Made by a program: the position numbers and the translations under genes
Assembly (NCBI GenBank): GCA_043788115.1
Contig: JAYVUH010000165.1
Coordinates: 1 to 30,170 of the forward strand
DNA length: 30,170 bases
Direction of reading: 5' to 3'
DNA from: Burkholderiales bacterium
GTDB lineage: Bacteria; Pseudomonadota; Gammaproteobacteria; Burkholderiales; Usitatibacteraceae
Notes under the pieces: generated by a model
Told to the model about the DNA's origin: nothing
Databases searched by the model: none
The model's input: the letters and a program-made list of their open reading frames with translations, nothing else
In this document: positions 5,970-19,878 of the stretch, in pieces
How the letters are laid out: each line of letters opens with the position of its first letter
How positions within the stretch are numbered: position 1 is the first letter of the stretch

Positions 5970-6100
5970 GGCGAAAGAAAATTGAGAGGAGTTGCCGGAT
6001 TCTCCCATGCAATTCAGGCGCTGCTAAAAACACGCTAACCGGCTGGAGACTAGGATTGACGGGAGTAAACTTGCCGTCCGGCATCGGGGTTGGGGTGGCG

Positions 6101-6128
6101 GTTGATTTCACGCTTTTTGGCCCCACTT
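6101..6128 (+). promoter_or_regulatory. Candidate sigma32 (RpoH)-type promoter for gshA-gshB
   Basis: GTTGAT (6101-6106), 14-nt spacer, CCCCAC(TT) (6121-6128), compared with the RpoH consensus CTTGAA-N13-15-CCCCAT; lies just upstream of the GAGAGG RBS and ATG 6163. Confidence 0.4.
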
Positions 6129-6162
6129 TGTTAGGCTGGGAAGCACATAGAGAGGTTGTTGC

Positions 6163-7515
6163 ATGGTTCCACATCTCACGACATCACTCACCGGCCCGGT
6201 ACTCGAACTCGAACAGAAAATTCTCGATTCGCGCCCGACCATCGAACGCTGGTTTCGCGCGCAATGGCAGACGCATACGCTGCCAATCTATTCGTCGGTC
6301 GATTTGCGTAATTCGGGATTCAAGCTCGCGCCGGTCGACACCAACCTATTTCCTGGCGGGTTTAACAATCTGAATCCAGACTTCCTGCCACTCTGTGTAC
6401 ACGCGATGATGTCTGCGGTGCAGAAAATCTGTCCGGATAAACAACGTTTTTTGTTGATCCCGGAGAATCACACCCGTAACCTGTTCTATCTCACCAACGT
6501 TGCCGCGATTCGAAAAATTCTCGAGGGTGCCGGACTAGATGTCCGCGTCGGCTCCATAAATCCGGAGATCACGACCGTCACGACGCTGGATCTACCGAAC
6601 GGCGACAAGCTCACGCTAGAGCCGGTGATCAGAATCGGCAACCGCGTTGGTGTCGCTGGGTTTGACCCCTGCGCGGTGTTGCTCAATAACGATTTGTCAG
6701 CCGGCGTGCCGCCGATTTTAGAAGGCATCGAGCAGCCGGTCGTCCCGCCGCTTTACTCTGGCTGGACCAATCGCCGCAAGACCATCCACTTCCACGCTTA
6801 TGACCGCGTTGCCGAGGAGTTCGCCAAGCTGATCAACATCGATCCGTGGATGATCAATCCCGAGTTCTCGCAGTGCGGGCGCGTGAATTTTTCAGCTAAA
6901 GAAGGCGAAGAATGTCTGGCCTCCAACGTTGAAGCGGTGTTGAAGGAAATTGAAATCAAATACAAAGAGTACGGTATCAAGGAAAAACCGTTTGTCATCG
7001 TCAAGGCCGATGCCGGCACCTACGGTATGGGTGTGCTGACGGCGCGTTCGCCGGACGACGTGCGCGACTTGAATCGTAAAGAGCGCAACAAGATGGCGGT
7101 CATCAAGGAAGGCCTTGAAGTCAACGAAGTCATCATTCAGGAAGGCGTCTATACGTTCGAGCGCGTCAACGATTTGGTCGCCGAGCCGGTCGTTTACATG
7201 ATCGATCAATTTGTGGTCGGCGGCTTTTATCGTGTCAATACCGACCGCGGGATTGACGAAAATCTCAATTCGCGCGGCATGAGCTTTGTCCCGCTCGCCT
7301 TTGAAACCGATTGCCACACGCCGGATTGCGCCGGTTTGCCCGACTCGCCAACCAACCGCTTCTACACCTACGGCGTGGTGGCGCGACTGGCCATGCTGGC
7401 GGCTGCCAAAGAGCTGGTGATTCTCGCGGAAATGCAGGCGGCGAGCAACGCGAAATCCGCCGCGCCGCTGGGACCGCCGACGCTGATCCGGCCAATCTCC
7501 GTCGCGGCCGAATGA
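6163..7515 (+). CDS. gshA: Glutamate--cysteine ligase, betaproteobacterial GshA type
   Basis: MVPHLTT start, YSSVDLRNSGFKLAPVDTNLFPGGFNNL, VKADAGTYGMG, EPVVYMID; GAGAGG RBS; translationally coupled to gshB. Confidence 0.93.
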   Translation: MVPHLTTSLTGPVLELEQKILDSRPTIERWFRAQWQTHTLPIYSSVDLRNSGFKLAPVDTNLFPGGFNNLNPDFLPLCVHAMMSAVQKICPDKQRFLLIPENHTRNLFYLTNVAAIRKILEGAGLDVRVGSINPEITTVTTLDLPNGDKLTLEPVIRIGNRVGVAGFDPCAVLLNNDLSAGVPPILEGIEQPVVPPLYSGWTNRRKTIHFHAYDRVAEEFAKLINIDPWMINPEFSQCGRVNFSAKEGEECLASNVEAVLKEIEIKYKEYGIKEKPFVIVKADAGTYGMGVLTARSPDDVRDLNRKERNKMAVIKEGLEVNEVIIQEGVYTFERVNDLVAEPVVYMIDQFVVGGFYRVNTDRGIDENLNSRGMSFVPLAFETDCHTPDCAGLPDSPTNRFYTYGVVARLAMLAAAKELVILAEMQAASNAKSAAPLGPPTLIRPISVAAE

Positions 7516-8441
7516 TGGATATCGCGTTCATCGTTGACCCGCTTGCCGGACTGAAGCCTTACAAGGATTCATCGGTGTTCATGATGCGCGAAGCATCAAA
7601 GCGCGGGCATGTCGTTTGGGCATTTGAAGCGTGCGAATTGCACGCTCGAGGGAACGCGGTTTCAGCGATGGCGTCACGTCTTACCGTCAGTGATGACAAC
7701 AGCCATTGGTGCAAGGTGGATCAATCGGTCGAGAAGCCGTTGAAGGATTTCGGCGCGGTGTTGATGCGTAAAGACCCGCCGTTTGATAAAGAGTATCTGT
7801 ATTCAACATTGCTATTGAGTCTTGCCGAGTCGCAGGGCGCGCGCATTATCAACCGGCCAGACAGCCTGCGCGATTACAACGAAAAGTTAGCCATCCTTAA
7901 GTTTCCGGAATTTACCGCGCCTACGCTGGTGACGGCTGAGATGGCGCAGGTGCATGCGTTTGTGGATGAACACACCGATGTCATTCTGAAGAAACTCGAC
8001 GGTATGGGTGGCACTTCCATCTTTCGTGTGACCGCCACTGACGCGAACCGCAATGCCATCGTCGAAGTGCAAACCGAGTACGGCGCATCGACCATCATGG
8101 CGCAGCGCTACATCCCCGAAATTGCGCAGGGTGACAAACGTGTATTGGTGATCGACGGCAAAGTGGCTGAACACACGCTTGCAAGAATTCCGAAAGCTGG
8201 TGAAACGCGCGGCAACTTGGCCGCTGGTGGCAAGGGTGTCGCGATGCCGATCACGCCACGCGAGCGTGAAATTGCCGAGGCGCTTGGCCCGACACTCAAG
8301 CGCGATGGACTTACCATCGTCGGACTCGACATCATCGGCGACTACTTAACCGAAGTGAATGTGACCTCACCAACCTGTATGGTCGAGATATTCGAGCAGA
8401 CGGGGGAGAACATTGCCGCTGCGGTACTTGACGCAATTTAG
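7512..8441 (+). CDS. gshB: Glutathione synthetase
   Basis: KDSS, LMRKDPPFD, NEKL, KKLDGMGGTSIF, RGNLAAGG, GLDIIGDYLTEVNVTSPTC. ATGA overlap with the gshA stop, so the true start is 7512 or 7515, not 7311. Confidence 0.95.
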   Translation: MMDIAFIVDPLAGLKPYKDSSVFMMREASKRGHVVWAFEACELHARGNAVSAMASRLTVSDDNSHWCKVDQSVEKPLKDFGAVLMRKDPPFDKEYLYSTLLLSLAESQGARIINRPDSLRDYNEKLAILKFPEFTAPTLVTAEMAQVHAFVDEHTDVILKKLDGMGGTSIFRVTATDANRNAIVEVQTEYGASTIMAQRYIPEIAQGDKRVLVIDGKVAEHTLARIPKAGETRGNLAAGGKGVAMPITPREREIAEALGPTLKRDGLTIVGLDIIGDYLTEVNVTSPTCMVEIFEQTGENIAAAVLDAI

Positions 8442-8488
8442 ATGAGCTACTGGCCGCGTGAGGCAGTGGCATATCTTATGTGGATGAG

Positions 8489-8546
8489 TGCCAGCCTGAC
8501 GCTTGCGGGCTAATTTGGTTTGACGGCGACCGGCCAGAAGCGGCTG
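8489..8546 (+). repeat. Left boundary of the putative insert: hairpin/direct-repeat half plus one short palindromic unit
   Basis: CCAGCCTG(8491-8498)...CGGGCTAAT(8506-8514) resembles CCAGCCTG(12690-12697)...CGGGCTTAAT(12711-12720). GACGGCGACCGGCCAGAAGCGG (8522-8543) resembles GACGGCTTCGGGTCAATAGCAG (12567-12588) at 15/22 positions. Confidence 0.45.
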
Positions 8547-8863
8547 TTTGAACCTGCTGTCCGATTTCATGCTCTGGCACACCGAATGGCGCGACAAACA
8601 CGTCAACTCCAACAACTGCGCGTTTTTCGGGTCGCGCACTTTGAACGGTCCACCTCGCCCAGTCATGCTTCCCCCATGCCGCACAAGTAAACTGGTGCGG
8701 ATGTTGTGGAAAAGATCATGGATTTCCCTCAGGGCCGTCAGTTTTGCGTGGGCAGCACTAGGGGTTAATATCTGTGCCATACCGCACAACAACAGCCTAA
8801 ACAATCGGCACGCTGCTCGCTAAAGCCGTCAGGCATCTAGAACGAAACTAAGGGGACACAATA

Positions 8864-11800
8864 ATGCAATTGCTCCGGACATTGCTGGTCGTTCTGCTCC
8901 TACATGTCGGTACACCTTTTGGGCAAACGATAACCCTGTTTAGTGACGGCCTGACGCCCGGAGTTGAGTGGGCGGATATACGAGCAATAGCGAGAGGTGC
9001 AGACGGTAATCTTTGGTTTACAGAGAGTGCAGGACGAATTGGCCGAATCACGACAGCCGGAGTCATAACAGAATTCTCCGCTGGGCTATCTTTCAGGCCA
9101 GGCAGCATCGCTCTTGGTCCAGATGGCAATATGTGGTTCACCGAGCGCGCAGGCGCCAAAGTCGGCAAGATTACACCAGCTGGCGTCATTACCGAGTTTT
9201 CGCAAGGGATATCAGCAGGCGCGCGAATATTTGGTATCACTTCGGGACCTGATGGCAACCTTTGGTACTCCGCTTGCGGCACACAAAAAATCGGGCGTAT
9301 CACGACGTCTGGTGTTGTCACAGAGTTTGCAGCAGGCATCCCTGCCGGAGCGTGCCCTTCTGGCATCACTCAGGGACCAGACGGCAATATTTGGTTTGCT
9401 GATCAACAGAAACGAATTGGCCGAATTACGACTGCTGGTGTCGTCACTATGTTTACCGCCGGTCTTCCAACCGATACGAACGGAGGTCCTGTCTTCATCA
9501 CCGCCGGGCCCGATGGCAACCTGTGGTTCACCATCACTAACGGCTCCCGCGTTGGCCGGATTACTCCTGCGGGAGTCATAACCGTATTCTCGGTTCCCGG
9601 GGGAGCTGATCCAAACCCTTGGCAAATCGTAACCGGTTCGGATGGAAACCTTTGGGTCACTAATTACTATGGTAGCCAAGGGCGCCTAGTATGGAAACTA
9701 ACGACCTCGGGAGTGGCAACAGCGTTCACAGTCGCCTCTTCAGCGATTGGCGGCGGATACCCCCAGGCAATTGCGTCCGGTCCTGACGGTAGTCTATGGA
9801 TTGGGCATGACATCAACTACAACTACATAACCCGAATGACCACTGAGGGGGCTCAAACCCATTTTTCTGAGGGAATCACTAAAACGGTGCCTTTTCCGCA
9901 ACCTTATAGCATCGTCAGCGGATCTGACGGAAATCTATGGGCACCTTTGCTTGGAAGCCGCCGATTTGCCAAAATTACGATGCAAGGAAAAATTACCGAA
10001 ATATCGCCAAACCCAGACTTAAGCATAGGCGCTAGTTTAGTATTTGCGCCGGACGGTAACGGATGGTTTGGTAGTTATAACAGCGTCGCGTATGTCACCC
10101 TTGCGGGTGAGACCAAGCAGTTCGGCTTAGGCGGATGTCAGAGTGGAACACCCAACAACTATCCTTATTCAGGTCTGCCTACGCTAGGGCCAGATGGAAA
10201 CGTTTGGGTTGTGGTGGGGCAATCTACGGCTTCTGGGCAATACCAACATTGCATAGCAAAAGTTACTCTTGCGGGCGTGGCGTCAAAAGTCGTAACCCTC
10301 TCAAGCGACCTCGCACCGGCGGCGATGGCCGCTGGGCCAGACGGAAATATGTGGTTTGTAGGTGGAGGGGGTAGCAGTCCTACCAGCACACCGAGCGTCG
10401 GGCGCATCTCGCCAACTGGCGAGGTTGCGACCTTCCCTACAGGTGTCGACTCTCGTTCGTTATTCACCTCAATTGTCGCAGGCCCAGACGGCAACATGTG
10501 GTTCACCGACCGCTTGGGGCAAATCGGGCGGATTACGATGACGGGCACGGTCACCTTTTTCAATCAGAGCACTGGGAACGCCCTTTTGTATTATCAGGCC
10601 ATCACCGCCGGGCCCGATGGAAGCCTTTGGTTTACTAGGGGAGGTAATGGGGTTGTTGGCAGCGCCATTGGTCGAATTACAACGTCCGGCGTAGTGACGA
10701 TATTCGGCGAAGGTATCCTCACCAACTCTTCCCGATGGGGAATCACCGCCGGCCCTGACGCGAATATTTGGTTCACCGAATATAGCGGCAACAAGATAGG
10801 TCGACTTACCACCGGGCTGGTGCCGAACAACATTGAGTTTCCAATCATACCCACCCAAAACTTGGCAAGCGCAACCTACACGCTGTCTGCCACTTCGACG
10901 TCTGGAGGTAATGTCGCTTTCACATCGGCGACACCAAGCGTGTGCGCCGTTAACGGCCGGACAGTTGCGTTCGTGCAAGCTGGCACTTGCACCATCGCTG
11001 CGAATCAAGCCGGAGGTTCTCAATATGCTCAAGCCCCGCAGGTCCTGCGGTCATTTCAAATAACTTCGCTTTTGGTACAAACGATAGCGTTCAACCCTGT
11101 TCCAAACAGGGCGTTGGGTAGCGCGCCCCTCACGCTCTCAGCTAGTGCTAGCTCGCTCCTTCCCGTTACCTTTAGTTCGCTGACGCCATCCGTATGCACG
11201 GTGAGTGGTCTTGTCGTCACAAACGTCGCGGTAGGTACCTGCACAATTGCTGGCAACCAAGGCGGGAACGCAACATTAGGCGCAGCTCAACAAGTGACAC
11301 AGTCTTTCCAAGTTACTGCCGGCAATCCGCCATCACCAGCAGTCCGAGGTGCAATCGATCTGGATGGAAACGGTAGGAATGCGTTTTTGTTACGCAGTGC
11401 CACTGCGCGGATGTTGGTAGGTAGATTTACGAACGGCGCATTTCTGTTTTCGGCTCTTACTGATCCCGGTTCCGCTTTTCGGCTTGTGGGTGTTGGCGAT
11501 TTCGATGGCAACGGAAAATCTGACCTTGCGTTTCAGAACATGACTCAGGGCGAATTGGGCGACATTAAGATTTGGAAGGACTTTTCTCCTTCAAATGAAA
11601 TCTACTGGCGGCAGGTTAAGCAGGTCTGGGACGTGCAGGCTACTGGTGATTTAGACGGAGACGGCTTCAGCGATATGGTTTGGCGCTATGTAGTGACTTC
11701 TTCGGCGGATACTGGCGTTTCTTATGTTTGGTTCACGAACGGTTCAAGCGTAACCCAGGTACGCAAGCGTGGAGGTGCTCCACTCGACTGGCAACTGCTC

Positions 11801-12364
11801 GGTGCTGCCGATTTGAATGGTGATCGCGCAGCGGACATGGTCTACATTAATCCTGCCGGTCAGGTGCGCGTACTGATGGCGACTCCCGGCAGAACCTGTG
11901 CAAATCTAACTGCTGGAAGCATACCGGCTGGGTATTCGGCGTTGAAACTGGCGGATTTCACTGGTAGCGGTCGAGCGGAGATTCTCATTAAAAATGCCGC
12001 TGGCCAAGCACAGCTTCTCGCACTGAATGGATCTGGGCTTACTCTCCCACCGTACATGGGCGCGCCAGATGACCAAAACGCGGCTTGCACATCAACCTCG
12101 CTAGCAGTTGGTACGAGCGTCTTGGCGTTGCCAAATATAGACCCAAGCTGGCAGTACTATGTGTCCGGAGACTTTAACGGCGACGGTATTGCCGATATCG
12201 TCTGGGTGCGACCAGATGGGACGTTGACCATGTGGCAAATGAACGCCGGTCTCTTAACCGGGAATAGTGCAGCACCAACTGTGTTGAACGACGTTGGTAG
12301 TGCTCCCCAAGGCTACTCGGTGTTCAATGGTGAAAAAAGCGGCACAAAGAGACTGCGGCAGTAG
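8864..12364 (+). CDS. Secreted multidomain protein: signal peptide, 14 Vgb-like (GPDGNxWF) propeller blades, 2 Ig-like repeats, FG-GAP/VCBS-like repeats
   Basis: Hydrophobic N-terminus; 14 G[PSA]DG-type motifs counted; two ~80-aa repeats each with PSVC...GTCTI; five clear DxDGDGxxD-type motifs plus one degenerate; AAGGGG RBS. Confidence 0.85.
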   Translation: MQLLRTLLVVLLLHVGTPFGQTITLFSDGLTPGVEWADIRAIARGADGNLWFTESAGRIGRITTAGVITEFSAGLSFRPGSIALGPDGNMWFTERAGAKVGKITPAGVITEFSQGISAGARIFGITSGPDGNLWYSACGTQKIGRITTSGVVTEFAAGIPAGACPSGITQGPDGNIWFADQQKRIGRITTAGVVTMFTAGLPTDTNGGPVFITAGPDGNLWFTITNGSRVGRITPAGVITVFSVPGGADPNPWQIVTGSDGNLWVTNYYGSQGRLVWKLTTSGVATAFTVASSAIGGGYPQAIASGPDGSLWIGHDINYNYITRMTTEGAQTHFSEGITKTVPFPQPYSIVSGSDGNLWAPLLGSRRFAKITMQGKITEISPNPDLSIGASLVFAPDGNGWFGSYNSVAYVTLAGETKQFGLGGCQSGTPNNYPYSGLPTLGPDGNVWVVVGQSTASGQYQHCIAKVTLAGVASKVVTLSSDLAPAAMAAGPDGNMWFVGGGGSSPTSTPSVGRISPTGEVATFPTGVDSRSLFTSIVAGPDGNMWFTDRLGQIGRITMTGTVTFFNQSTGNALLYYQAITAGPDGSLWFTRGGNGVVGSAIGRITTSGVVTIFGEGILTNSSRWGITAGPDANIWFTEYSGNKIGRLTTGLVPNNIEFPIIPTQNLASATYTLSATSTSGGNVAFTSATPSVCAVNGRTVAFVQAGTCTIAANQAGGSQYAQAPQVLRSFQITSLLVQTIAFNPVPNRALGSAPLTLSASASSLLPVTFSSLTPSVCTVSGLVVTNVAVGTCTIAGNQGGNATLGAAQQVTQSFQVTAGNPPSPAVRGAIDLDGNGRNAFLLRSATARMLVGRFTNGAFLFSALTDPGSAFRLVGVGDFDGNGKSDLAFQNMTQGELGDIKIWKDFSPSNEIYWRQVKQVWDVQATGDLDGDGFSDMVWRYVVTSSADTGVSYVWFTNGSSVTQVRKRGGAPLDWQLLGAADLNGDRAADMVYINPAGQVRVLMATPGRTCANLTAGSIPAGYSALKLADFTGSGRAEILIKNAAGQAQLLALNGSGLTLPPYMGAPDDQNAACTSTSLAVGTSVLALPNIDPSWQYYVSGDFNGDGIADIVWVRPDGTLTMWQMNAGLLTGNSAAPTVLNDVGSAPQGYSVFNGEKSGTKRLRQ

Positions 12365-12543
12365 GCCGGACCTTCTTGTTTGCAAAACACTGCCCCAGCC
12401 AACTCAACCAGCTTAGTTGCGGTGGCAATTCCCCGCTCACGCTGTGCACTAGCTAGTGCTGACATGCGCACGGTTCGACAATTATCGGCCCGTTCGATTG
12501 TGCCAATCGGTCGGATTCGTGCCGGCTTGTGCCGCAGTCGAAT

Positions 12544-12720
12544 GACGGCTTTCGGGAAAGTTAAAGGACGGCTTCGGGTCAATAGCAGACATGCACCTTT
12601 ACTATGCGCGCTGAATCCAACTGTTCAAGCGTGACCTTTCCCGCCTCCGCAAAGCAGACCTTTGGGCATCGCCACTGTACGAGGGCAGTCCAGCCTGCGG
12701 ACGAATTTGTCGGGCTTAAT
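12544..12720 (+). repeat. Right boundary of the putative insert: clustered imperfect palindromic units plus direct-repeat half
   Basis: GACGGCTTTCGGGAAAG (12544-12560), GACGGCTTCGGGTCAATAGCAGAC (12567-12590), a second AGCAGAC-ending unit (to 12659), then CCAGCCTG...CGGGCTTAAT (12690-12720). Confidence 0.5.
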
Positions 12721-14953
12721 GCCCCGATTTCGGATAAGCGGGCGTGTTGTCTGGGCTCACACCCAGTTTCACAATTGCGCCAAGCAGCGAGCCAAAACTT
12801 CCCTCACCACGCGTCCAGTCGTTCAACGCTTTGCCGACCGCGAGCTTACCAACCGTCGCTGTGGATCGTTTGTAAATACCCGCCGCGAATTTATTGGCTT
12901 CGCCCATGGTCGGGTAGGTGTGGATGGTACCGAGGATGCCTTCGAGCCCGAAGCCGTGTTTCATTGCCGCGACGAACTCAACCAGAATATCGCCCGCGTG
13001 TTCGCCAACAATGGTGGCACCTAGAATCTTGTCCGAGCCCCTCGGCGTGATGACTTTCACGAAGCCATGCGCTTCGCCGTCCGCGATGGCGCGATCGAGA
13101 TCGTCGATGCCATACACGTGCGTATCAAACGCGATGCCCTTTTCTTTGGCTTCTTGTTCGTTTAATCCAACGCGCGCAACTTCAGGGTCGGTGAAGGTCG
13201 CCCACGGCACAACGGAAAAATCGACTTTGAATTTCTTGAACTTGCCGAACAACGCGTTCACGGCGCAATACCACGCCATATGCGCCGCCGTGTGCGTGAA
13301 TTGATAGGGGCCCGCAACGTCGCCGCAGGCAAAGATGTTCGGGTAGATGGTCTCTAGGTATTCGTTGGTCTCGACCACCTTGGTGGCTGGGATGCCAAGC
13401 TCCTCTAAGCCAAAGCCCTTGAGGTTGGCCACGCGCCCGACCGCGCACAATAATTCGTCGAATCCAATTTTCTTATCTACGCCGTCATGTTCAACCACCA
13501 GATATTTCTCGCCATTCTCGACCACCACCTGCTTCGCCTTGTGGTTGACCAGCACCGTCACGCCTTCGGCTTCAAATTTTCTTTTCACAATCGCCGAGAC
13601 TTCCGGGTCTTCGCGAAGCATGATGCGTGGCGCCATTTCAACTTGCGTGACCTGCGAGCCGAAGCGCGCGAAACACTGCGTCAGCTCCGAACCGATCGGG
13701 CCGCCGCCGAGCACCACGAGGCGCTTTGGCAGTTTGCGAATATTCCAGATGTTGTCCGAGGTGAGCGGATTGATTTCTGCAAGCCCCGGAATCGGTGGCA
13801 CAAACGGTCGCGCGCCGGTCGCAATCACAATGTTCTTCGTCGTGAGCCGCTGCTTGCTGCCGTCGTCTTTGGTGACTTCAACTTCCCAAGGGCTGAGGAT
13901 GCGCGCCGACCCCTTGACGCAATCGACGCCCAAGCCGGTGTAGCGTGCAACTGAATCGTGCGGCTCAATTTCATCAACGACCTTGCTGACGCGTTCCATC
14001 ACCTCTGCGAAATCCCATGTCGCCGAGGCTGACGCAATACCAAATTCTTTGGCGCGTGAAATATGGTTTAACAGCTTTGCCGAACGGATCAGCGCTTTGG
14101 ACGGCACGCAGCCGGTGTTGAGGCAATCGCCACCCATCTTGTGTTTTTCCACCAGCGTGACTTTGGCTTTGACGGCCGCCGCGATGTAGCTGGTTACGAG
14201 CCCCGCCGAGCCTGCCCCAATGACCACAACGTTGCGGTCGAAGTGGCTGGGCTTTTTGTCAGTCCACGGCGCATAGATCTTGTTCGCCTTAACGCGCTCG
14301 ATAACTTTCTTGGCGATGATCGGGAAGATACCGAGCAGCACGAAGGCGCCAATCAAGCCGGGATTCAGAATGCCTTTCAACGACGTGATTTCTGCGAGTT
14401 GCATACCGGCGTTGACGAACACCACGGTGCCGAGAAACATTCCGACTTGGGAAACCCAGAAGAACGTCCACATACGCATCGGCGTGAGGCCCATCAACAC
14501 GTTGATCAGAAAGAACGGAAACGCCGGGACCAGACGCAGCGTGAACAGATAGAACGCGCCTTCTTTTTCGATACCGGCGTTGAACGACTTCAACTTATCG
14601 CCAAATTTCGCTTGAATGCTGTCGCGCAGAATAAAGCGTGCCGTGAGAAAGGCGAGCGTTGCACCCAAGGTCGACGCGAACGACACCAAAATCACGCCTT
14701 TGACCAAACCAAACAACGCGCCGGCCACTAGCGTCAAGATGGCTGCGCCGGGCAGTGATAGGCCGGTGGCGGCAACGTAGATCAGAAAGAAAATCAACGT
14801 GGTCTGCCAAGGGTTGGCTTGATAGTAGCCGGAGATCGTCGCTTGCTGCGCCTTGACATACTCGAGGCTGACAAATCGACCGAGGTCGAAGATAAAGAAT
14901 GCCGCGATTAGCGCACCAACGGCCAGCACCAACAACATCTTGCTCTTGTTCAT
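12716..14953 (-). CDS. TVP38/DedA (VTT) membrane domain fused to a pyridine nucleotide-disulfide oxidoreductase (lipoamide dehydrogenase/MerA-like fold)
   Basis: N-terminal SLPGAAILTL...GALFG...LRLVPAFPFFLIN (VTT); FAD-binding VIGAGSAG; redox disulfide GGDCLNTGCVPSK; NAD-binding LGGGPIG; C-terminal HTYPTMGE. GGGAG RBS favours ATG 14953. Confidence 0.88.
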   Translation of the reverse strand: MNKSKMLLVLAVGALIAAFFIFDLGRFVSLEYVKAQQATISGYYQANPWQTTLIFFLIYVAATGLSLPGAAILTLVAGALFGLVKGVILVSFASTLGATLAFLTARFILRDSIQAKFGDKLKSFNAGIEKEGAFYLFTLRLVPAFPFFLINVLMGLTPMRMWTFFWVSQVGMFLGTVVFVNAGMQLAEITSLKGILNPGLIGAFVLLGIFPIIAKKVIERVKANKIYAPWTDKKPSHFDRNVVVIGAGSAGLVTSYIAAAVKAKVTLVEKHKMGGDCLNTGCVPSKALIRSAKLLNHISRAKEFGIASASATWDFAEVMERVSKVVDEIEPHDSVARYTGLGVDCVKGSARILSPWEVEVTKDDGSKQRLTTKNIVIATGARPFVPPIPGLAEINPLTSDNIWNIRKLPKRLVVLGGGPIGSELTQCFARFGSQVTQVEMAPRIMLREDPEVSAIVKRKFEAEGVTVLVNHKAKQVVVENGEKYLVVEHDGVDKKIGFDELLCAVGRVANLKGFGLEELGIPATKVVETNEYLETIYPNIFACGDVAGPYQFTHTAAHMAWYCAVNALFGKFKKFKVDFSVVPWATFTDPEVARVGLNEQEAKEKGIAFDTHVYGIDDLDRAIADGEAHGFVKVITPRGSDKILGATIVGEHAGDILVEFVAAMKHGFGLEGILGTIHTYPTMGEANKFAAGIYKRSTATVGKLAVGKALNDWTRGEGSFGSLLGAIVKLGVSPDNTPAYPKSGH

Positions 14954-15028
14954 TACCACTCCCTGAAGAACGACACCCGTTGGTCGCGGTTGCCGTCCGA
15001 AAATTACGTTTTGATCATGCCGCCGATG

Positions 15029-15988
15029 CTACGCGCAAATAGACGGCGCCCGACCCAATCCCAGCGCGTGCGGCGCGGCGTACGCCGGGCCATCGACAAT
15101 ACGCTTGAAATACGAGCGGTGTGCCGGTGAGTCGGTCGGCCAGTCAGCGAGGAAGCGCGCCTTGAACGCCGCCTGATCGTAGTGCACCGGTATCGCATCA
15201 ACGAATGTTGGCCCGAACTGCCGCCCATATTGCGACCAGCCGTCGGGCGCGGGATGGCTCGACAGACGGGAAATCAGCCCGTAGTGCGTGCCGCCAAAAT
15301 TCGGCATTCCGGCCGCGCCGTTGTTGATCACGAACGCTGCTCGCCCGCCGTTTGCGAATTGGCGGAACGTTGGTAAGCAGGTATGGCTGGAGGCGAATCC
15401 CACTAGGTTTGCCGAGGCGCAGACATCCATCAGCCAAGCGACATTGTCTGCATCGTGCAGGCTGTCGTGGGCAAATCGCCAGCCTGCGAGCGATTCAGCG
15501 TCGCCGTGAACAATACCGATACGCTGCTCGCCGATTTGTGCGACGAGGTGCATCGGTAGTGCGGCCAACCTGGCAGCGTCCTCCGGAAACTGCGCGGCCG
15601 TCCGGCGCAGCGCGCGCATGATTTCATTCGAACGCTCAACGTCGGCGTCATCGACATAGTCCGGGTAGGCGCAGCCACATCCCGCGTCGTCCGCATCGGC
15701 GCGCAGTTCCGTCTCGACATTGCCGCGCAACGCAGTGTGCTTGAGCACCCCTGCATTGACCGCGGCGAAGGTGTGTGGGTCAGTGTCAAACCAGTGAAAA
15801 TCGCCGTTGAAGACGAGTGTCGGCGGCACGATTTCTTTGGCCGCCAGCGCAAGGATCGCGGTGAGCGCTGGCAGGTTGCCGTACAGCCCACCGATCACAT
15901 AGACCGTTTCGGCGACGACGTCCGCGTCGCGTGCGAACACACTCGGACTGTAGCGGTAATCGATTGGGCAGGAACGGCCGGGAGTCAT
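15029..15988 (-). CDS. Calcineurin-like metallophosphoesterase-fold protein with degenerate metal ligands and a CGC motif
   Basis: YVIGGLYGN, VFNGDFHWFD, LRGNVE, IVHGD and SSHTC align with phosphoesterase motifs I-V; also GRSCP and GCGCAYP. Confidence 0.65.
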   Translation of the reverse strand: MTPGRSCPIDYRYSPSVFARDADVVAETVYVIGGLYGNLPALTAILALAAKEIVPPTLVFNGDFHWFDTDPHTFAAVNAGVLKHTALRGNVETELRADADDAGCGCAYPDYVDDADVERSNEIMRALRRTAAQFPEDAARLAALPMHLVAQIGEQRIGIVHGDAESLAGWRFAHDSLHDADNVAWLMDVCASANLVGFASSHTCLPTFRQFANGGRAAFVINNGAAGMPNFGGTHYGLISRLSSHPAPDGWSQYGRQFGPTFVDAIPVHYDQAAFKARFLADWPTDSPAHRSYFKRIVDGPAYAAPHALGLGRAPSICA

Positions 15989-16123
15989 GGTGGTAGTCGG
16001 GATGGAGGCGCGGCGGAAGACACGGAGGAAACTACAGCAGCTGCGCGAACCGTGGCGGTTAACTGCTGCTCAAGGGCGTCAAGAAGCTAAACACAAGTAA
16101 ATACGGGCATCTCCAGACATTTT

Positions 16124-16153
16124 GTGCTGAAAACGCCCGCCAATAAACGACTT
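16124..16153 (-). repeat. Dispersed intergenic repeat, copy B
   Basis: Minus strand reads AAGTCGTTTATTGGCGGGCGTTTTCAGCAC; 19-nt core identical to 4496-4514. Confidence 0.75.
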
Positions 16154-16160
16154 CTGTCTT

Positions 16161-17162
16161 TTATTCTGCAGCCATCAAATCGTTGGCTGATTCGCTGTCC
16201 GCGTCGAGCGCACCGCCGCAACTCGACCCTTGTCCGGCGGTGCAGCCGTAGCAATGGTCTTTCACGACGATAGAATTGCCCAACAGATCCACGCCGATCA
16301 AATCGCGCAAATGTGTTTTCAGTTCTGTACCGTTTTGTATCGGCAGGCCCAGCATCTGATTGAAATCACAGTCGTAAACATAGCCCAGATAGTCAACCGA
16401 GATCAACGAGCGGCACATCACATTGTCGAGATTGTGCTGCTGAAAATTGGCCACCAGCAGATCCATGTAGCCTTCAAACTCGCCTTTGGAAATCAACGTT
16501 GAGCCAAAGCGCTGGATGGGCATATTGGTGATGGTAAACAGGTGATCGAAGACAATGCCGAAATTCTGTTTGAGCAAACGGTGGTAGTCGGCTTCCAACG
16601 CTTCTTGGGGCGGCGGCAACTTCGCACCCTGCGGGTTGTACACCAAGTTAAGCACCAGCCCGCTGCCGGGCACGCCATAGCCGAGTGCGTTGAGTTGCTT
16701 GAGGCCGGTGATGGACGCTTCAAACACGCCCTCGCCGCGCTGCTTGTCGACATTTGCCTGCGAGTAGCAGGGCAGTGATGCCGACACTTCGACGTAATGA
16801 CCGGCCAAAAACTGCGCCAGGTCCTCAAAGCCGGGCTCGCCCAGAATCGTTAGATTGCACCGATCAATCACCCGCACGTTCATCGAACGCGCCGCGACAA
16901 CCAGACGCCGGAAATTGTCATTCATCTCCGGCGCGCCGCCGGTCAGATCGAGCGTCGTGACGTTCGACGCCTGCATGAAGGCAATCACGTCGTCGATGGT
17001 GTCAGCGGACATCATCTCTTTGCGATCGGGGCTCGCATTGACGTGGCAATGAAAACACGACTGATTACATTTGTAGCCGAGATTGACTTGCAACGTATTG
17101 AGCGCATTGCGCCGAATATGCGGAAAACCGCGTGACTTCATCAAGTGCAAGGTTTGATGCAT
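16161..17162 (-). CDS. arsS: Radical SAM/Cys-rich domain protein, ArsS-like (arsenosugar biosynthesis family, DUF3641 C-terminus)
   Basis: TLQVNLGYKCNQSCFHC (CxxxCxxC), LDLTGGAPE, ASLPCY, MCRSLISVD...YDCDFNQML, HCYGCTAGQGSSCGG. The family call is firm; the arsenic-specific function is not. Confidence 0.82.
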   Translation of the reverse strand: MHQTLHLMKSRGFPHIRRNALNTLQVNLGYKCNQSCFHCHVNASPDRKEMMSADTIDDVIAFMQASNVTTLDLTGGAPEMNDNFRRLVVAARSMNVRVIDRCNLTILGEPGFEDLAQFLAGHYVEVSASLPCYSQANVDKQRGEGVFEASITGLKQLNALGYGVPGSGLVLNLVYNPQGAKLPPPQEALEADYHRLLKQNFGIVFDHLFTITNMPIQRFGSTLISKGEFEGYMDLLVANFQQHNLDNVMCRSLISVDYLGYVYDCDFNQMLGLPIQNGTELKTHLRDLIGVDLLGNSIVVKDHCYGCTAGQGSSCGGALDADSESANDLMAAE

Positions 17163-17266
17163 GGCAGGCTCGAATGGAATTGAAAGATGCTAACCGATCC
17201 TGTTAGCTACGTAGCGGCGAAGATCGTGGATGCAGTTTGGTCGATTTTTAATCCCGAACCTGACAG

Positions 17267-19261
17267 CTAAATCAGCGCCCGGACCGTCTGGACGACGTTC
17301 TCGGTGGTGATGCCAAAGTGTTTGTACAACACCCCCGCCGGGGCAGACTCGCCGAACGTGTCGATGCCGACCACACCGCCCTCGAGACCCACATACTTGC
17401 GCCAGTAGTTGGTGATGCCGGCTTCGATCGCCACGCGCGTCACGTCTTTGGGCAGCACGCTGTCACGATAGTCGGCAGCCTGACGGTCGAACTCATAGGC
17501 CGACGGCATCGAGACGACTCTGGCGTGAACGCCGTCCGACGCGAGTGTCTTTTGCGCTTCCATGGCGACGGCGACTTCAGTGCCGGTGGCAATGAGGATC
17601 ACCCGCAACGGACCGCGCTCCGGAGACAAGACATATCCACCACGTGCCACGTTGGCCAGTGTCGCTTCATCGCGTTTCTGGAAGGCGGAATTCTGACGCG
17701 AAAAAATCAAACACGTCGGGCCGTTGTGACGCGCCAATGCGTGGCACCACGCCGCCGCTGCTTCCACGGTATCGCAAGGGCGCCACAGATCCATGTTCGG
17801 GATCAGGCGTAGCGAGGCGACGTGTTCAACGGATTGGTGGGTCGGGCCGTCCTCACCCAAGCCGATCGAATCGTGGGTGAAGACCGAAATATTGCGAATC
17901 TTCATTAGGGCGGCCATGCGCAGCGCATTACGCGAGTAGTCGCTGAAGGTCAGGAACGTGCCGTGGTACGGAATAAAGCCACCGTGCAAGGTCATGCCGT
18001 TGGCGATGGCGGCCATGCCGAATTCACGCACGCCGAAGTTGATGTAATTGCCACCCGCCGTGGCGGAGAGCGCCTTGCTGCCGCTCCAGTTGGTGAAGAC
18101 CGAGCCGGTCAGATCTGCCGAACCGCCGATCATCTCTGGCAAGGTTTGCGCGAAGGCTTCAATGGCGAACTGCGAGGCTTTGCGCGTGGCAACGGTTTCC
18201 GCCTTCTCGACGGACTTCGCCAACAATGCCGCGGCGGTCGCGGCAAAACTTGCCGGCAACTCACCTGCCATGCGCCGTTTGAATTCAGCCGCCAGCGCGG
18301 GCTCGGCGTGCTCATACGCGGCGAAGGTCGCATTCCACTGTGCCTCGATCGCCATACCTTTGTGTTTGGCATCCCACGCGTCATAGATGTCTTGCGGAAT
18401 CTCGAACGGTGCGTGCTTCCAGCCGATTGCTTCGCGTGTGGCGGCGACTTCTTTTTCGCCCAACGCACTGCCGTGCACTTTGTCCGTGCCGGCCATGTTG
18501 GGCGAGCCCTTGCCGATCACCGTTTTGCAGCAGATCAACGTTGGCTTTTCTGATTGTTCCTTTGCTTCAGTGATAGCCGCATCGATTTGCGCCGGGTCGT
18601 GGCCATCGACGTTTGGAATGACGTTCCAGCCGTAGGCCGCAAAACGCATCGGCGTGTTGTCGCGAAACCAGCCTTCAACCTTGCCGTCGATGGAAATACC
18701 GTTGTCGTCGTAAAAGACGATCAGCTTGCCCAAGCCGAGCGTGCCGGCCAGCGAGCAAACCTCGTGAGAAATGCCTTCCATCATGCAGCCGTCGCCAGCG
18801 AACACGTAGGTGTAGTGATCGACCAGCTTGAGTCCGTCGCGGTTAAATGTGCGAGCCAGCTCTCGTTCGGCCAACGCCATCCCTACCGCATTCGCCAAGC
18901 CCTGACCGAGCGGACCGGTAGTGGTCTCCACGCCGGGGGTGATGCCGACTTCCGGGTGTCCCGGCGTTTTGGAATGCAGCTGACGGAAATCCTTGATGTC
19001 GTCCATCGACAGCGCGTAGCCGGTCAGATGCAGCAACGAGTACATCAACATTGAGCCGTGGCCGTTGGACAGCACGAAGCGATCACGATTTGCCCAGTGT
19101 GGATTGGTCGGGCTGTGCCGCAAATGATGTCGCCACAGCACCTCCGCAATCTCGGCCATGCCCATCGGCGCGCCAGGGTGTCCAGAGTTAGCTTTCTGGA
19201 CGGCGTCCATGGACAGGGCGCGGATGGCGTTGGTAATGTCGGTACGGGAGGCTTGGGTCAT
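17267..19261 (-). CDS. tkt: Transketolase
   Basis: [29 protein letters not shown], ThDP motif [22 protein letters not shown]. Confidence 0.97.
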
Positions 19262-19340
19262 GATGGTCGGTGTGGGGCGAGGGGCTTGGATAATTTGCGG
19301 GTTGATGCTAGGGACGAGCGCGGGGCTCCAATAGCCAGCA

Positions 19341-19348
19341 ATTATAAT
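19341..19348. promoter_or_regulatory. Palindromic ATTATAAT giving a TATAAT -10 box on both strands between divergent tkt and speD
   Basis: TATAAT on + at 19343-19348 and on - at 19341-19346. No properly spaced -35 was found. Confidence 0.3.
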
Positions 19349-19464
19349 TTAGGGGCTGTGTCATCGACCCTGATATTTTTCAGGCCCAGATTCAGTAGCC
19401 GCTGCCCGCTTGCTCGTGATGTTGGCGTGCCACGTCGTTTCGTCACCATTACCGGAGTGTCACC

Positions 19465-19878
19465 ATGCGCGGACTACACATCTTTGCCGATTTCTATAAC
19501 TGCCCCAAGGGAAAATACATGGTGTCAGCCAAAGCGCTACGCCATCTGTGTATCCGTGCCTCGGAAGCCGCCGGGCTGACCGTGCTGGGCGATCATTTCT
19601 ATCAATTCAACGGTTTTGACGCCACTCAGCTCGGCGGCGCCACCGGCGCGCTGGTGCTGGCCGAATCGCACCTTGCTGTTCACACCTGGCCAGAGCGACT
19701 GGGCGCAACGTTGGATATCTATGTTTGTAACGTGACCGGCGACAATAGCGGCAAAGCCGAGGCGCTCTACGCCGAGCTGGTCAGCGCGATTCGACCGGTC
19801 GACATCATGGTTGAGCGCGTTTGGCGCGGCAAGGACCTGCCGGTAGCAGGCGCCGCCGCGAAGCTGGCTGCCGCTTGA
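19465..19878 (+). CDS. speD: S-adenosylmethionine decarboxylase proenzyme (pyruvoyl, short SpeD/SpeH class)
   Basis: GLHIFADFYNC; self-cleavage motif LAESHLAVHTWPE; LDIYVC; CCGGAG RBS; adjacent to speE. Confidence 0.92.
   Translation: MRGLHIFADFYNCPKGKYMVSAKALRHLCIRASEAAGLTVLGDHFYQFNGFDATQLGGATGALVLAESHLAVHTWPERLGATLDIYVCNVTGDNSGKAEALYAELVSAIRPVDIMVERVWRGKDLPVAGAAAKLAAA

Follow-up and report, generated by a model that had tools for sequence, protein, structure and literature searches.

Radical S-adenosylmethionine (SAM) enzymes of the ArsS family attach a 5'-deoxyadenosyl group to trivalent dimethylated arsenic, DMAs(III) (PMC13598754), and in the cyanobacterium Synechocystis sp. PCC 6803 ArsS teams with the arsenic methylase ArsM (Xue et al., 2019, as cited in PMC8552651). 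In a contig of 30,170 nucleotides (nt) from a Burkholderiales bacterium of the family Usitatibacteraceae (GenBank assembly GCA_043788115.1, contig JAYVUH010000165.1; this whole stretch is referred to as the window), an ArsS-family gene heads a trio whose other members encode a Cys-rich protein with a predicted metallophosphoesterase fold and a fusion of a DedA membrane domain with a disulfide reductase, while profile searches of the window find no ArsM, no TIGR04282/04283 transferase and no SelD. The locus thus raises the question of which pathway an ArsS-type enzyme serves when neither a methylase nor glycosyltransferases accompany it. A sequence-only reading, which had correctly noted that these genes are missing from the window, proposed a self-contained, non-canonical three-gene pathway. 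Our comparison with related genomes instead reveals a Burkholderiales-type ArsS ("arsenosugar-type") cluster with the trio as its promoter-proximal half; in this genome the cluster is broken after the reductase gene and has its second half on another contig, C200. The three genes are the following:

17162..16161, minus strand: ArsS-family radical SAM gene, 333 amino acids (aa); TIGR04167, PF12345, PF04055
15988..15029, minus strand: Cys-rich metallophosphoesterase-fold gene (referred to as phosphoesterase-like), 319 aa; one metal site kept, one lost
14959..12716, minus strand: DedA-reductase fusion gene, 747 aa; PF09335, PF07992 and PF02852; start probably at the ATG at 14953

A split ArsS-type cluster

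The synteny comparison included the window and 16 loci from the same genus and order. In most of the species compared the trio runs directly into genes that family scans assign to DUF547, TIGR04283, TIGR04282/DUF2064, DUF3047 and TIGR03169, so that the full Burkholderiales-type order consists of the ArsS-family radical SAM gene, the phosphoesterase-like gene, in some cases a patatin gene, the DedA-reductase gene and then these five. TIGR04283 and TIGR04282 both carry the NCBIfam name "arsenosugar biosynthesis glycosyltransferase", and TIGR03169, a flavoprotein family, owes its name to frequent fusions with SelD. In the genome of the window (G000) all five genes are found in this order on the minus strand of contig C200 (5929..1533, locus L117), where the two transferases score above their cut-offs (265 bits for TIGR04283, 202 bits for TIGR04282) and where unrelated genes (6037-11378) lie upstream. 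In the window itself, the place taken by DUF547, TIGR04283 and TIGR04282 in the relatives is occupied by a gene of 1166 aa on the opposite strand. As the transferases are present on C200 and contiguous with the trio in relatives, a trio without glycosyltransferases reflects a local rearrangement and not a different pathway.

The phosphoesterase-like family is large, with 1058 representative clusters at E<=0.001. Of its species-level loci, at least 578 in number, the best 80 were scanned for neighbouring genes, each ratio counting only loci with enough flanking sequence. The radical SAM gene lies directly upstream of the phosphoesterase-like gene in 49 of 57 loci and the DedA-reductase gene downstream of it in 36 of 56; TIGR04283 and TIGR04282 follow downstream in 38 of 43, and the complete trio is present in 28 of 50. 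The hosts are many Burkholderiales, including Usitatibacteraceae as well as Actimicrobium and Noviherbaspirillum isolates, together with Pseudolabrys/Xanthobacteraceae and Competibacteraceae. The co-conservation that the sequence-only reading presumed for the three genes is therefore seen within the genus, within the order and across the 80-locus scan, whereas its claim that the trio stands alone without glycosyltransferases does not survive the comparison. That the three genes nevertheless form a pathway of their own, independent of the glycosyltransferase-linked clusters, is in our estimation very unlikely: the trio does stand alone in the window, and the congeners G005, G007, G021 and G024 also have the cluster interrupted past the reductase or DUF547 gene, so that the front half may be a separable transcription unit, but the transferases are encoded on C200 and follow the trio in 38 of the 43 loci in which sufficient flank is available.

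Minus-strand open reading frames (ORFs) were found where three co-oriented genes with gaps of about 170 and 75 nt had been described from the sequence. The gap between the radical SAM and phosphoesterase-like genes measures 172 nt and that between the phosphoesterase-like and DedA-reductase genes 69 nt, or 75 nt if the latter gene starts at the ATG at 14953, which has a GGGAG 5 nt upstream and is probably its start. Promoter and terminator scans gave sites no commoner than in shuffled sequence and none on the gene strand in the three intergenic gaps; likewise, the region 3' of the reductase stop codon folds no better than shuffled sequence, and an Rfam scan of positions 12000-19600 returned no matches. 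Since dozens of species share this gene order, the adjacency of the trio is far beyond chance. An explanation as chance neighbours without shared function could invoke the lack of a promoter or terminator signal marking an operon and the width of the first gap, but is already contradicted by gene order conserved over many species and several families, by gene fusions and by strong co-occurrence, and we regard it as extremely improbable.

The trio is bordered by one gene on each side:

8864..12364, plus strand: repeat-protein gene, 1166 aa; cluster boundary only, no part in the pathway
17267..19261, minus strand: transketolase gene; context only, 104 nt upstream of the radical SAM gene

The transketolase gene is kept as the upstream neighbour in several congeners. 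According to a Pfam scan of the other large ORFs, the remaining window holds housekeeping genes (transketolase, speD/speE, gshA/gshB, a Mur ligase, an RNB nuclease and others); ArsR and ArsB/Acr3 are not among the Pfam families of these ORFs, although no search by name was made. The glutathione synthesis genes gshA and gshB (6163-8441) are convergent to the trio, with only the repeat-protein gene between them. Relatives do not have these genes in this place, so their position here is probably a side effect of the rearrangement.

The radical SAM protein and the search for ArsM

Against TIGR04167, the NCBIfam equivalog "arsenosugar biosynthesis radical SAM (seleno)protein ArsS", the radical SAM protein scores 459.6 bits (cut-off 300), so that the ArsS-like identity proposed from the sequence holds. 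It also matches PF12345 (DUF3641, E=1.4e-55) and PF04055 (Radical_SAM) and is 55-68% identical to homologues from 60 genomes sampled across the class. The core motif CX3CX2C reads CNQSCFHC (residues 32-39), and the C-terminal Cys-rich DUF3641 domain carries the motif CYGCTAGQGSSC (residues 304-315, 16253..16218), which is retained in essentially all 64 class-wide homologues. The family is common: of 400 genomes drawn evenly from the class, 186 have a TIGR04167 score above the cut-off. Across 60 class-wide loci, the commonest neighbours of ArsS are TIGR04282 and TIGR04283, followed by an ArsM-like methyltransferase of 400 aa and by DedA and/or the reductase. At four class-wide loci without transferases nearby (L043, L057, L059, L078), hemB, encoding delta-aminolevulinate dehydratase, lies divergently beside the ArsS-type gene.

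In order to place the missing methylase in context, ArsM was searched for beyond the window. The best match to NF008823 in the window's genome, which is 89% complete, reaches 50 bits (cut-off 263), and canonical ArsM and ArsM-like queries gave no tblastn match there; no ArsM was found in eight congeners either, five of which are 96-100% complete. The description of the trio as lacking arsM is supported by these searches. With the same two kinds of query, none of the 80 phosphoesterase-like loci has an ArsM-like gene within 10 kb. Among the 60 class-wide genomes bearing ArsS, by comparison, 48 carry an ArsM-like gene, canonical in 23, which often adjoins ArsS. The idea that the phosphoesterase-like gene strictly substitutes for ArsM fits the loci but fails genome-wide: four of eight class-level carriers of the phosphoesterase-like gene have an ArsM-like gene elsewhere in the genome, as does G028, and this idea was therefore rejected.

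The methyltransferase found most often beside ArsS (L041:9823-11025 and 18 further class-wide loci) is an ArsM-like protein of about 400 aa that matches the ArsM models in two stretches (NF040538, 320 bits with a cut-off of 500; NF008823, 184 bits with a cut-off of 263). As it falls below every curated ArsM cut-off, it would be missed by surveys that use arsM models.

We further considered whether radical SAM proteins from ArsM-less genomes form a separate subfamily. On a quick tree of the family, the label "ArsM-less" requires 14 changes, no fewer than shuffled labels do, and the sister genomes G430 and G071 on this tree differ solely in the methylase gene. A separate subfamily was consequently rejected, and a diverged enzyme subtype is not supported either, since ArsM-less copies are scattered through the tree.

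This bears on an alternative according to which ArsM-less bacteria handle no arsenic at all, the ArsS-type enzyme adenosylating a selenium or sulfur compound and the flavoproteins serving selenium or sulfur redox chemistry. The failure to find ArsM in the window's genome and eight congeners would fit, as would the presence in the genus cluster of TIGR03169 with its link to SelD, the occurrence of genes for TusA, TauE and gamma-glutamyltranspeptidase next to the phosphoesterase-like gene in some loci, and the designation of ArsS as a "(seleno)protein" by NCBIfam. A SelD-like C-terminal fragment that runs into the end of contig C328 in the window's genome (locus L116; 106.6 bits against TIGR00476 positions 215-310, with an AIRS_C match) points the same way; it may be a true SelD or part of a SelD-related fusion, and it lies about 1.5 kb from a gene for a PhnD-like binding protein (features at 224-946 and 2435-2824). 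On the other hand, 48 of the 60 sampled ArsS-bearing genomes of the class do encode an ArsM-like protein, often right beside ArsS, the radical SAM proteins of ArsM-less genomes are no clade, G430 and G071 are set apart by the methylase gene and nothing else, and DMAs(III) is the only substrate with demonstrated activity in the family (PMC13598754). We therefore consider a substrate other than arsenic unlikely.

The phosphoesterase-like protein and the DedA-reductase fusion

The phosphoesterase-like protein has no Pfam or NCBIfam match at E<0.01, its score against Metallophos (16.4 bits, E=0.012) remaining below the gathering threshold of 21.5. An AlphaFold2 model with a mean predicted local distance difference test (pLDDT) score of 95.8 was used for a Foldseek search, in which 3qfn, 1nnw, 2gju and 3rqz are the top matches (E 4e-11 to 1e-8, target template modelling score around 0.7); ranked by protein, these begin with the diadenosine tetraphosphate (Ap4A) hydrolase SapH (3qfn/3qfm), continue with uncharacterised archaeal and bacterial metallophosphoesterases and then reach LpxH and Vps29. 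According to the model, the protein has the metallophosphoesterase fold, a calcineurin-like alpha/beta sandwich. Where the full two-metal ligand set of metallophosphoesterases is DxH, GD, GNH(D/E), H and GHxH, the protein reads GGLYGN, NGDF, GNVE, HGD and SHTC: it shares with enzymes of the SapH, YfcE and LpxH type, besides the fold, the GD of motif II, the Asn of motif III, the His of motif IV and the first His of motif V, and differs from them in that DxH has become G-L-Y, the non-ligand His of GNHE is replaced by Val, the second His of GHxH is Cys, and four conserved cysteines have been gained.

An alignment of 58 sequences shows that this pattern belongs to the whole family. The ligands of one metal site (D63, N90, H161, H202) are invariant, in all members three of the four residues expected at the other site have given way to G34, Y36 and C204, and the motif III His is lost throughout. 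C104 and C106, which form the CGC motif (residues 104-106, 15679..15671), are invariant in 58/58 sequences, while C7 is present in 54 and C204 in 52 of them. To judge by this pattern, the active site seems to have been remodelled and not to have decayed. The earlier label "degenerate phosphoesterase" is apt in that the model matches the fold and the alignment shows metal ligands to be lost.

Full-length fusions, all of which keep the conserved residues, join the phosphoesterase-like domain to ArsS (P0172, P0229), to DUF2064 (P0137, with 7 members from the four sources NCBI, ENA, JGI and Logan) and to an ATP-binding cassette (ABC) ATPase (P0128). P0200, an apparent fusion with DUF3641, lacks the radical SAM motif and contains only a partial phosphoesterase domain; it was set aside as a likely error of gene calling. 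In 16 of the 80 loci and in five further ones, importer genes immediately precede the phosphoesterase-like gene. Away from ArsS, the gene is found behind a PhnD-type ABC importer, sometimes together with a MetE-like/TusA protein, or behind a sodium:solute symporter, and in several full clusters importer genes also sit between ArsS and the phosphoesterase-like gene. Its distribution follows that of ArsS: among relatives it occurs only in ArsS-bearing genomes (26/26), and in the class sample in such genomes in 8 of 9 cases. That it should rarely stand beside ArsS, as 0 of 60 evenly drawn class loci had suggested, was rejected as a sampling effect after the targeted scan.

The recurrence of the gene beside importers points to a step before the radical SAM reaction more than to one after it. 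The opposite placement would have the protein act late: it would hydrolyse either the adenosyl adduct or a nucleotide-activated intermediate produced by the CofC-like transferase TIGR04282/DUF2064, in each case at a pyrophosphate or phosphodiester bond. This role comes close to the adduct-processing hydrolase of the sequence-only reading. The nearest folds speak for such a role, SapH and LpxH both being nucleotide pyrophosphatases, and so do the DUF2064 fusion and the invariant ligands of the remaining metal site. What speaks against it is that the other site is dismantled in all members, that the gene repeatedly lies right behind importer genes and exists as a fusion to an ABC ATPase, and that fusions with ArsS, the enzyme that opens the pathway, occur as well. 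We hence consider a late hydrolase the less likely placement by some distance.

Three further observations concern this gene and its importer partners. In two congeners the PhnD-type importer is separated from the phosphoesterase-like gene by the gene for a protein of 533 aa (L032:3855-5456 and L029:1075-2619) that combines a TusA-like domain with the catalytic domain of cobalamin-independent methionine synthase; this protein may methylate thiols or metalloids and was not found in the window's genome. On contig C469 of the window's genome (locus L125, 3426-5641) there are genes for a permease and for a PhnD-type binding protein, the latter sharing 67% identity with the binding protein that neighbours the phosphoesterase-like gene of G028; only short ORFs come after these two, and neither an ATPase nor a phosphoesterase-like gene. 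In the complete congener genome G005 (L109, about 9000-9250) all that is left of the phosphoesterase-like gene, between the genes for the radical SAM protein and the DedA-reductase, is a remnant of 50 residues with a stop codon, and a copy of the DedA-reductase 3' end encoding 44 residues (13924-14055) is located 2.4 kb further downstream.

The third protein of the trio consists of a DedA/VTT membrane domain (residues 1-225 approximately; PF09335, E=6e-23 at 73-186) and a part resembling class I disulfide reductases dependent on flavin adenine dinucleotide (FAD) and NAD(P)H (residues 240-700 approximately; PF07992, E=5e-60; PF02852, E=6e-29). The redox pair CLNTGC (residues 279-284, 14125..14108) has both cysteines, C279 and C284, invariant in 20/20 sequences, and the His680/Glu687 pair, a trait of true disulfide reductases, is equally conserved (20/20). 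The same 20 sequences share no further conserved Cys, and the C-terminal tail is Cys-free. On the basis of these sequence features, the reductase part is a class I pyridine nucleotide-disulfide oxidoreductase. Its assignment to a named family was less successful: the score against mercuric reductase MerA (TIGR02053) is 380.4 bits with a cut-off of 454.45, and the MerA-type C-terminal Cys pair is lacking; dihydrolipoyl dehydrogenase (TIGR01350) is likewise missed, with 396.3 bits for a cut-off of 408.8 and an N-terminal membrane domain foreign to that family; and the NF004991 score is below the curated cut-off. With the redox pair, all three Cys motifs highlighted by the sequence-only reading are accounted for; judged by the alignments, they are hallmarks of their families and not peculiar to the copies in the window.

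Orthologues of the fusion (threshold E<=1e-120) occur in 124 of 399 genomes of the class, and 106 of these 124 also carry ArsS, compared to 81 of the 275 genomes without an orthologue (odds ratio 14, Fisher p 1.6e-26, without phylogenetic correction). The tallies include the unpublished genomes G079, G181, G336 and G348, the omission of which cannot alter the result. In 23 of the 60 class-wide loci DedA and/or the reductase, fused or as separate genes, lie beside ArsS. The combination of DedA with a pyridine nucleotide-disulfide oxidoreductase is the commonest DedA fusion, and its function is unknown (PMC10127716). Judged by its Pfam domains, the protein described here has the same PF09335, PF07992 and PF02852 architecture as the COG0398-type fusions of that survey; in contrast to these, for which no link to a pathway was given, the fusion or its separate halves are tied to ArsS clusters by adjacency and co-occurrence.

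A proposed imported-substrate relay and its relation to known systems

The reading that we favour, and hold to be probable though far from certain, takes the trio as the front half of an arsenosugar-type cluster that operates as a relay for an imported substrate. As no ArsM was found, this substrate is probably imported in finished form, for example as an arsenical methylated by other microbes, and would not be methylated in the cell. The phosphoesterase-like protein, via its conserved cysteines, would most likely bind or reduce the imported, oxyanion-like substrate and hand it to ArsS. By analogy to the cyanobacterial enzyme acting on DMAs(III), the radical SAM protein would then move the 5'-deoxyadenosyl group onto the trivalent metalloid centre, the membrane-anchored flavoprotein drawing on NAD(P)H to maintain the relay thiols, or the Cys-rich ArsS tail, in reduced form; in the sequence-only reading it would keep the substrate reduced. 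From the adenosyl adduct the two transferases would finally make a sugar or lipid-linked product.

A number of points weigh against this relay. The closest folds of the phosphoesterase-like protein are nucleotide pyrophosphatases and one of its fusion partners is DUF2064, both of which a late step would fit equally well. The DedA-reductase is much more widespread than the phosphoesterase-like protein, so that reducing the latter cannot be its general role, and its association with ArsS was calculated without regard to phylogeny. Furthermore, the window's genome is 89% complete, and some carriers of the phosphoesterase-like gene do have an ArsM-like gene at another place in the genome.

A more specific version of the relay would make the phosphoesterase-like family a new thiol-based carrier or reductase that takes over imported organoarsenicals, or a selenium analogue, from PhnD-type or sodium:solute importers and delivers them to ArsS, drawing its electrons from the DedA-flavoprotein. 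We put this forward as a tentative and rather doubtful proposal. If it were true, many Burkholderiales would make arsenosugar-type products from scavenged methylated arsenic without an ArsM of their own, and the commonest DedA domain fusion would gain its first functional context.

Arsenate reductases arose from phosphatase folds, ArsC from the low-molecular-weight protein tyrosine phosphatase type and Acr2 from the CDC25 type. The phosphoesterase-like protein resembles them by analogy only, in combining a phosphate-handling fold, cysteines (essential in ArsC and Acr2, conserved here) and an arsenic-related context; its fold is unrelated, and we do not claim membership in either group.

With the ArsM-ArsS pathway of Synechocystis sp. 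PCC 6803 the locus shares the equivalog-level ArsS score, the CX3CX2C motif and the Cys-rich DUF3641 tail. It differs from that pathway in its Burkholderiales host, in the added phosphoesterase-like and DedA-reductase genes, and in that ArsM was found neither nearby nor elsewhere in the genome. The agreement with the NCBIfam arsenosugar set is closer, since TIGR04167, TIGR04283 and TIGR04282 all exceed their cut-offs in the genome and are contiguous in relatives, although here they are split over two contigs. To this set the Burkholderiales form adds the phosphoesterase-like, DedA-reductase, DUF547, DUF3047 and TIGR03169 genes and sometimes a patatin or importer gene. The cluster hence belongs to the ArsS/TIGR04283/TIGR04282 type defined by NCBIfam, while its Burkholderiales form has, as far as our literature searches show, no published description; the searches also returned no paper characterising TIGR04282, TIGR04283, the partners of DUF3641 or the DedA-reductase fusion.

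ArsS-type clusters are widespread yet barely studied, and of arsenosugar synthesis only the first steps are known, from a cyanobacterium. For the steps still to be assigned, the membrane-anchored disulfide reductase and the rewired phosphoesterase-fold protein offer two candidates with wide conservation. Many Burkholderiales of soil and fresh water retain the pathway in the absence of an arsenic methylase, which implies either that they use arsenic methylated by others or that the enzyme family has a second substrate; the former, if true, would bear on arsenic cycling in soils and paddy fields. Cultured carriers are available in Actimicrobium sp. CCI2.3 and Noviherbaspirillum sp. 1P10PC.

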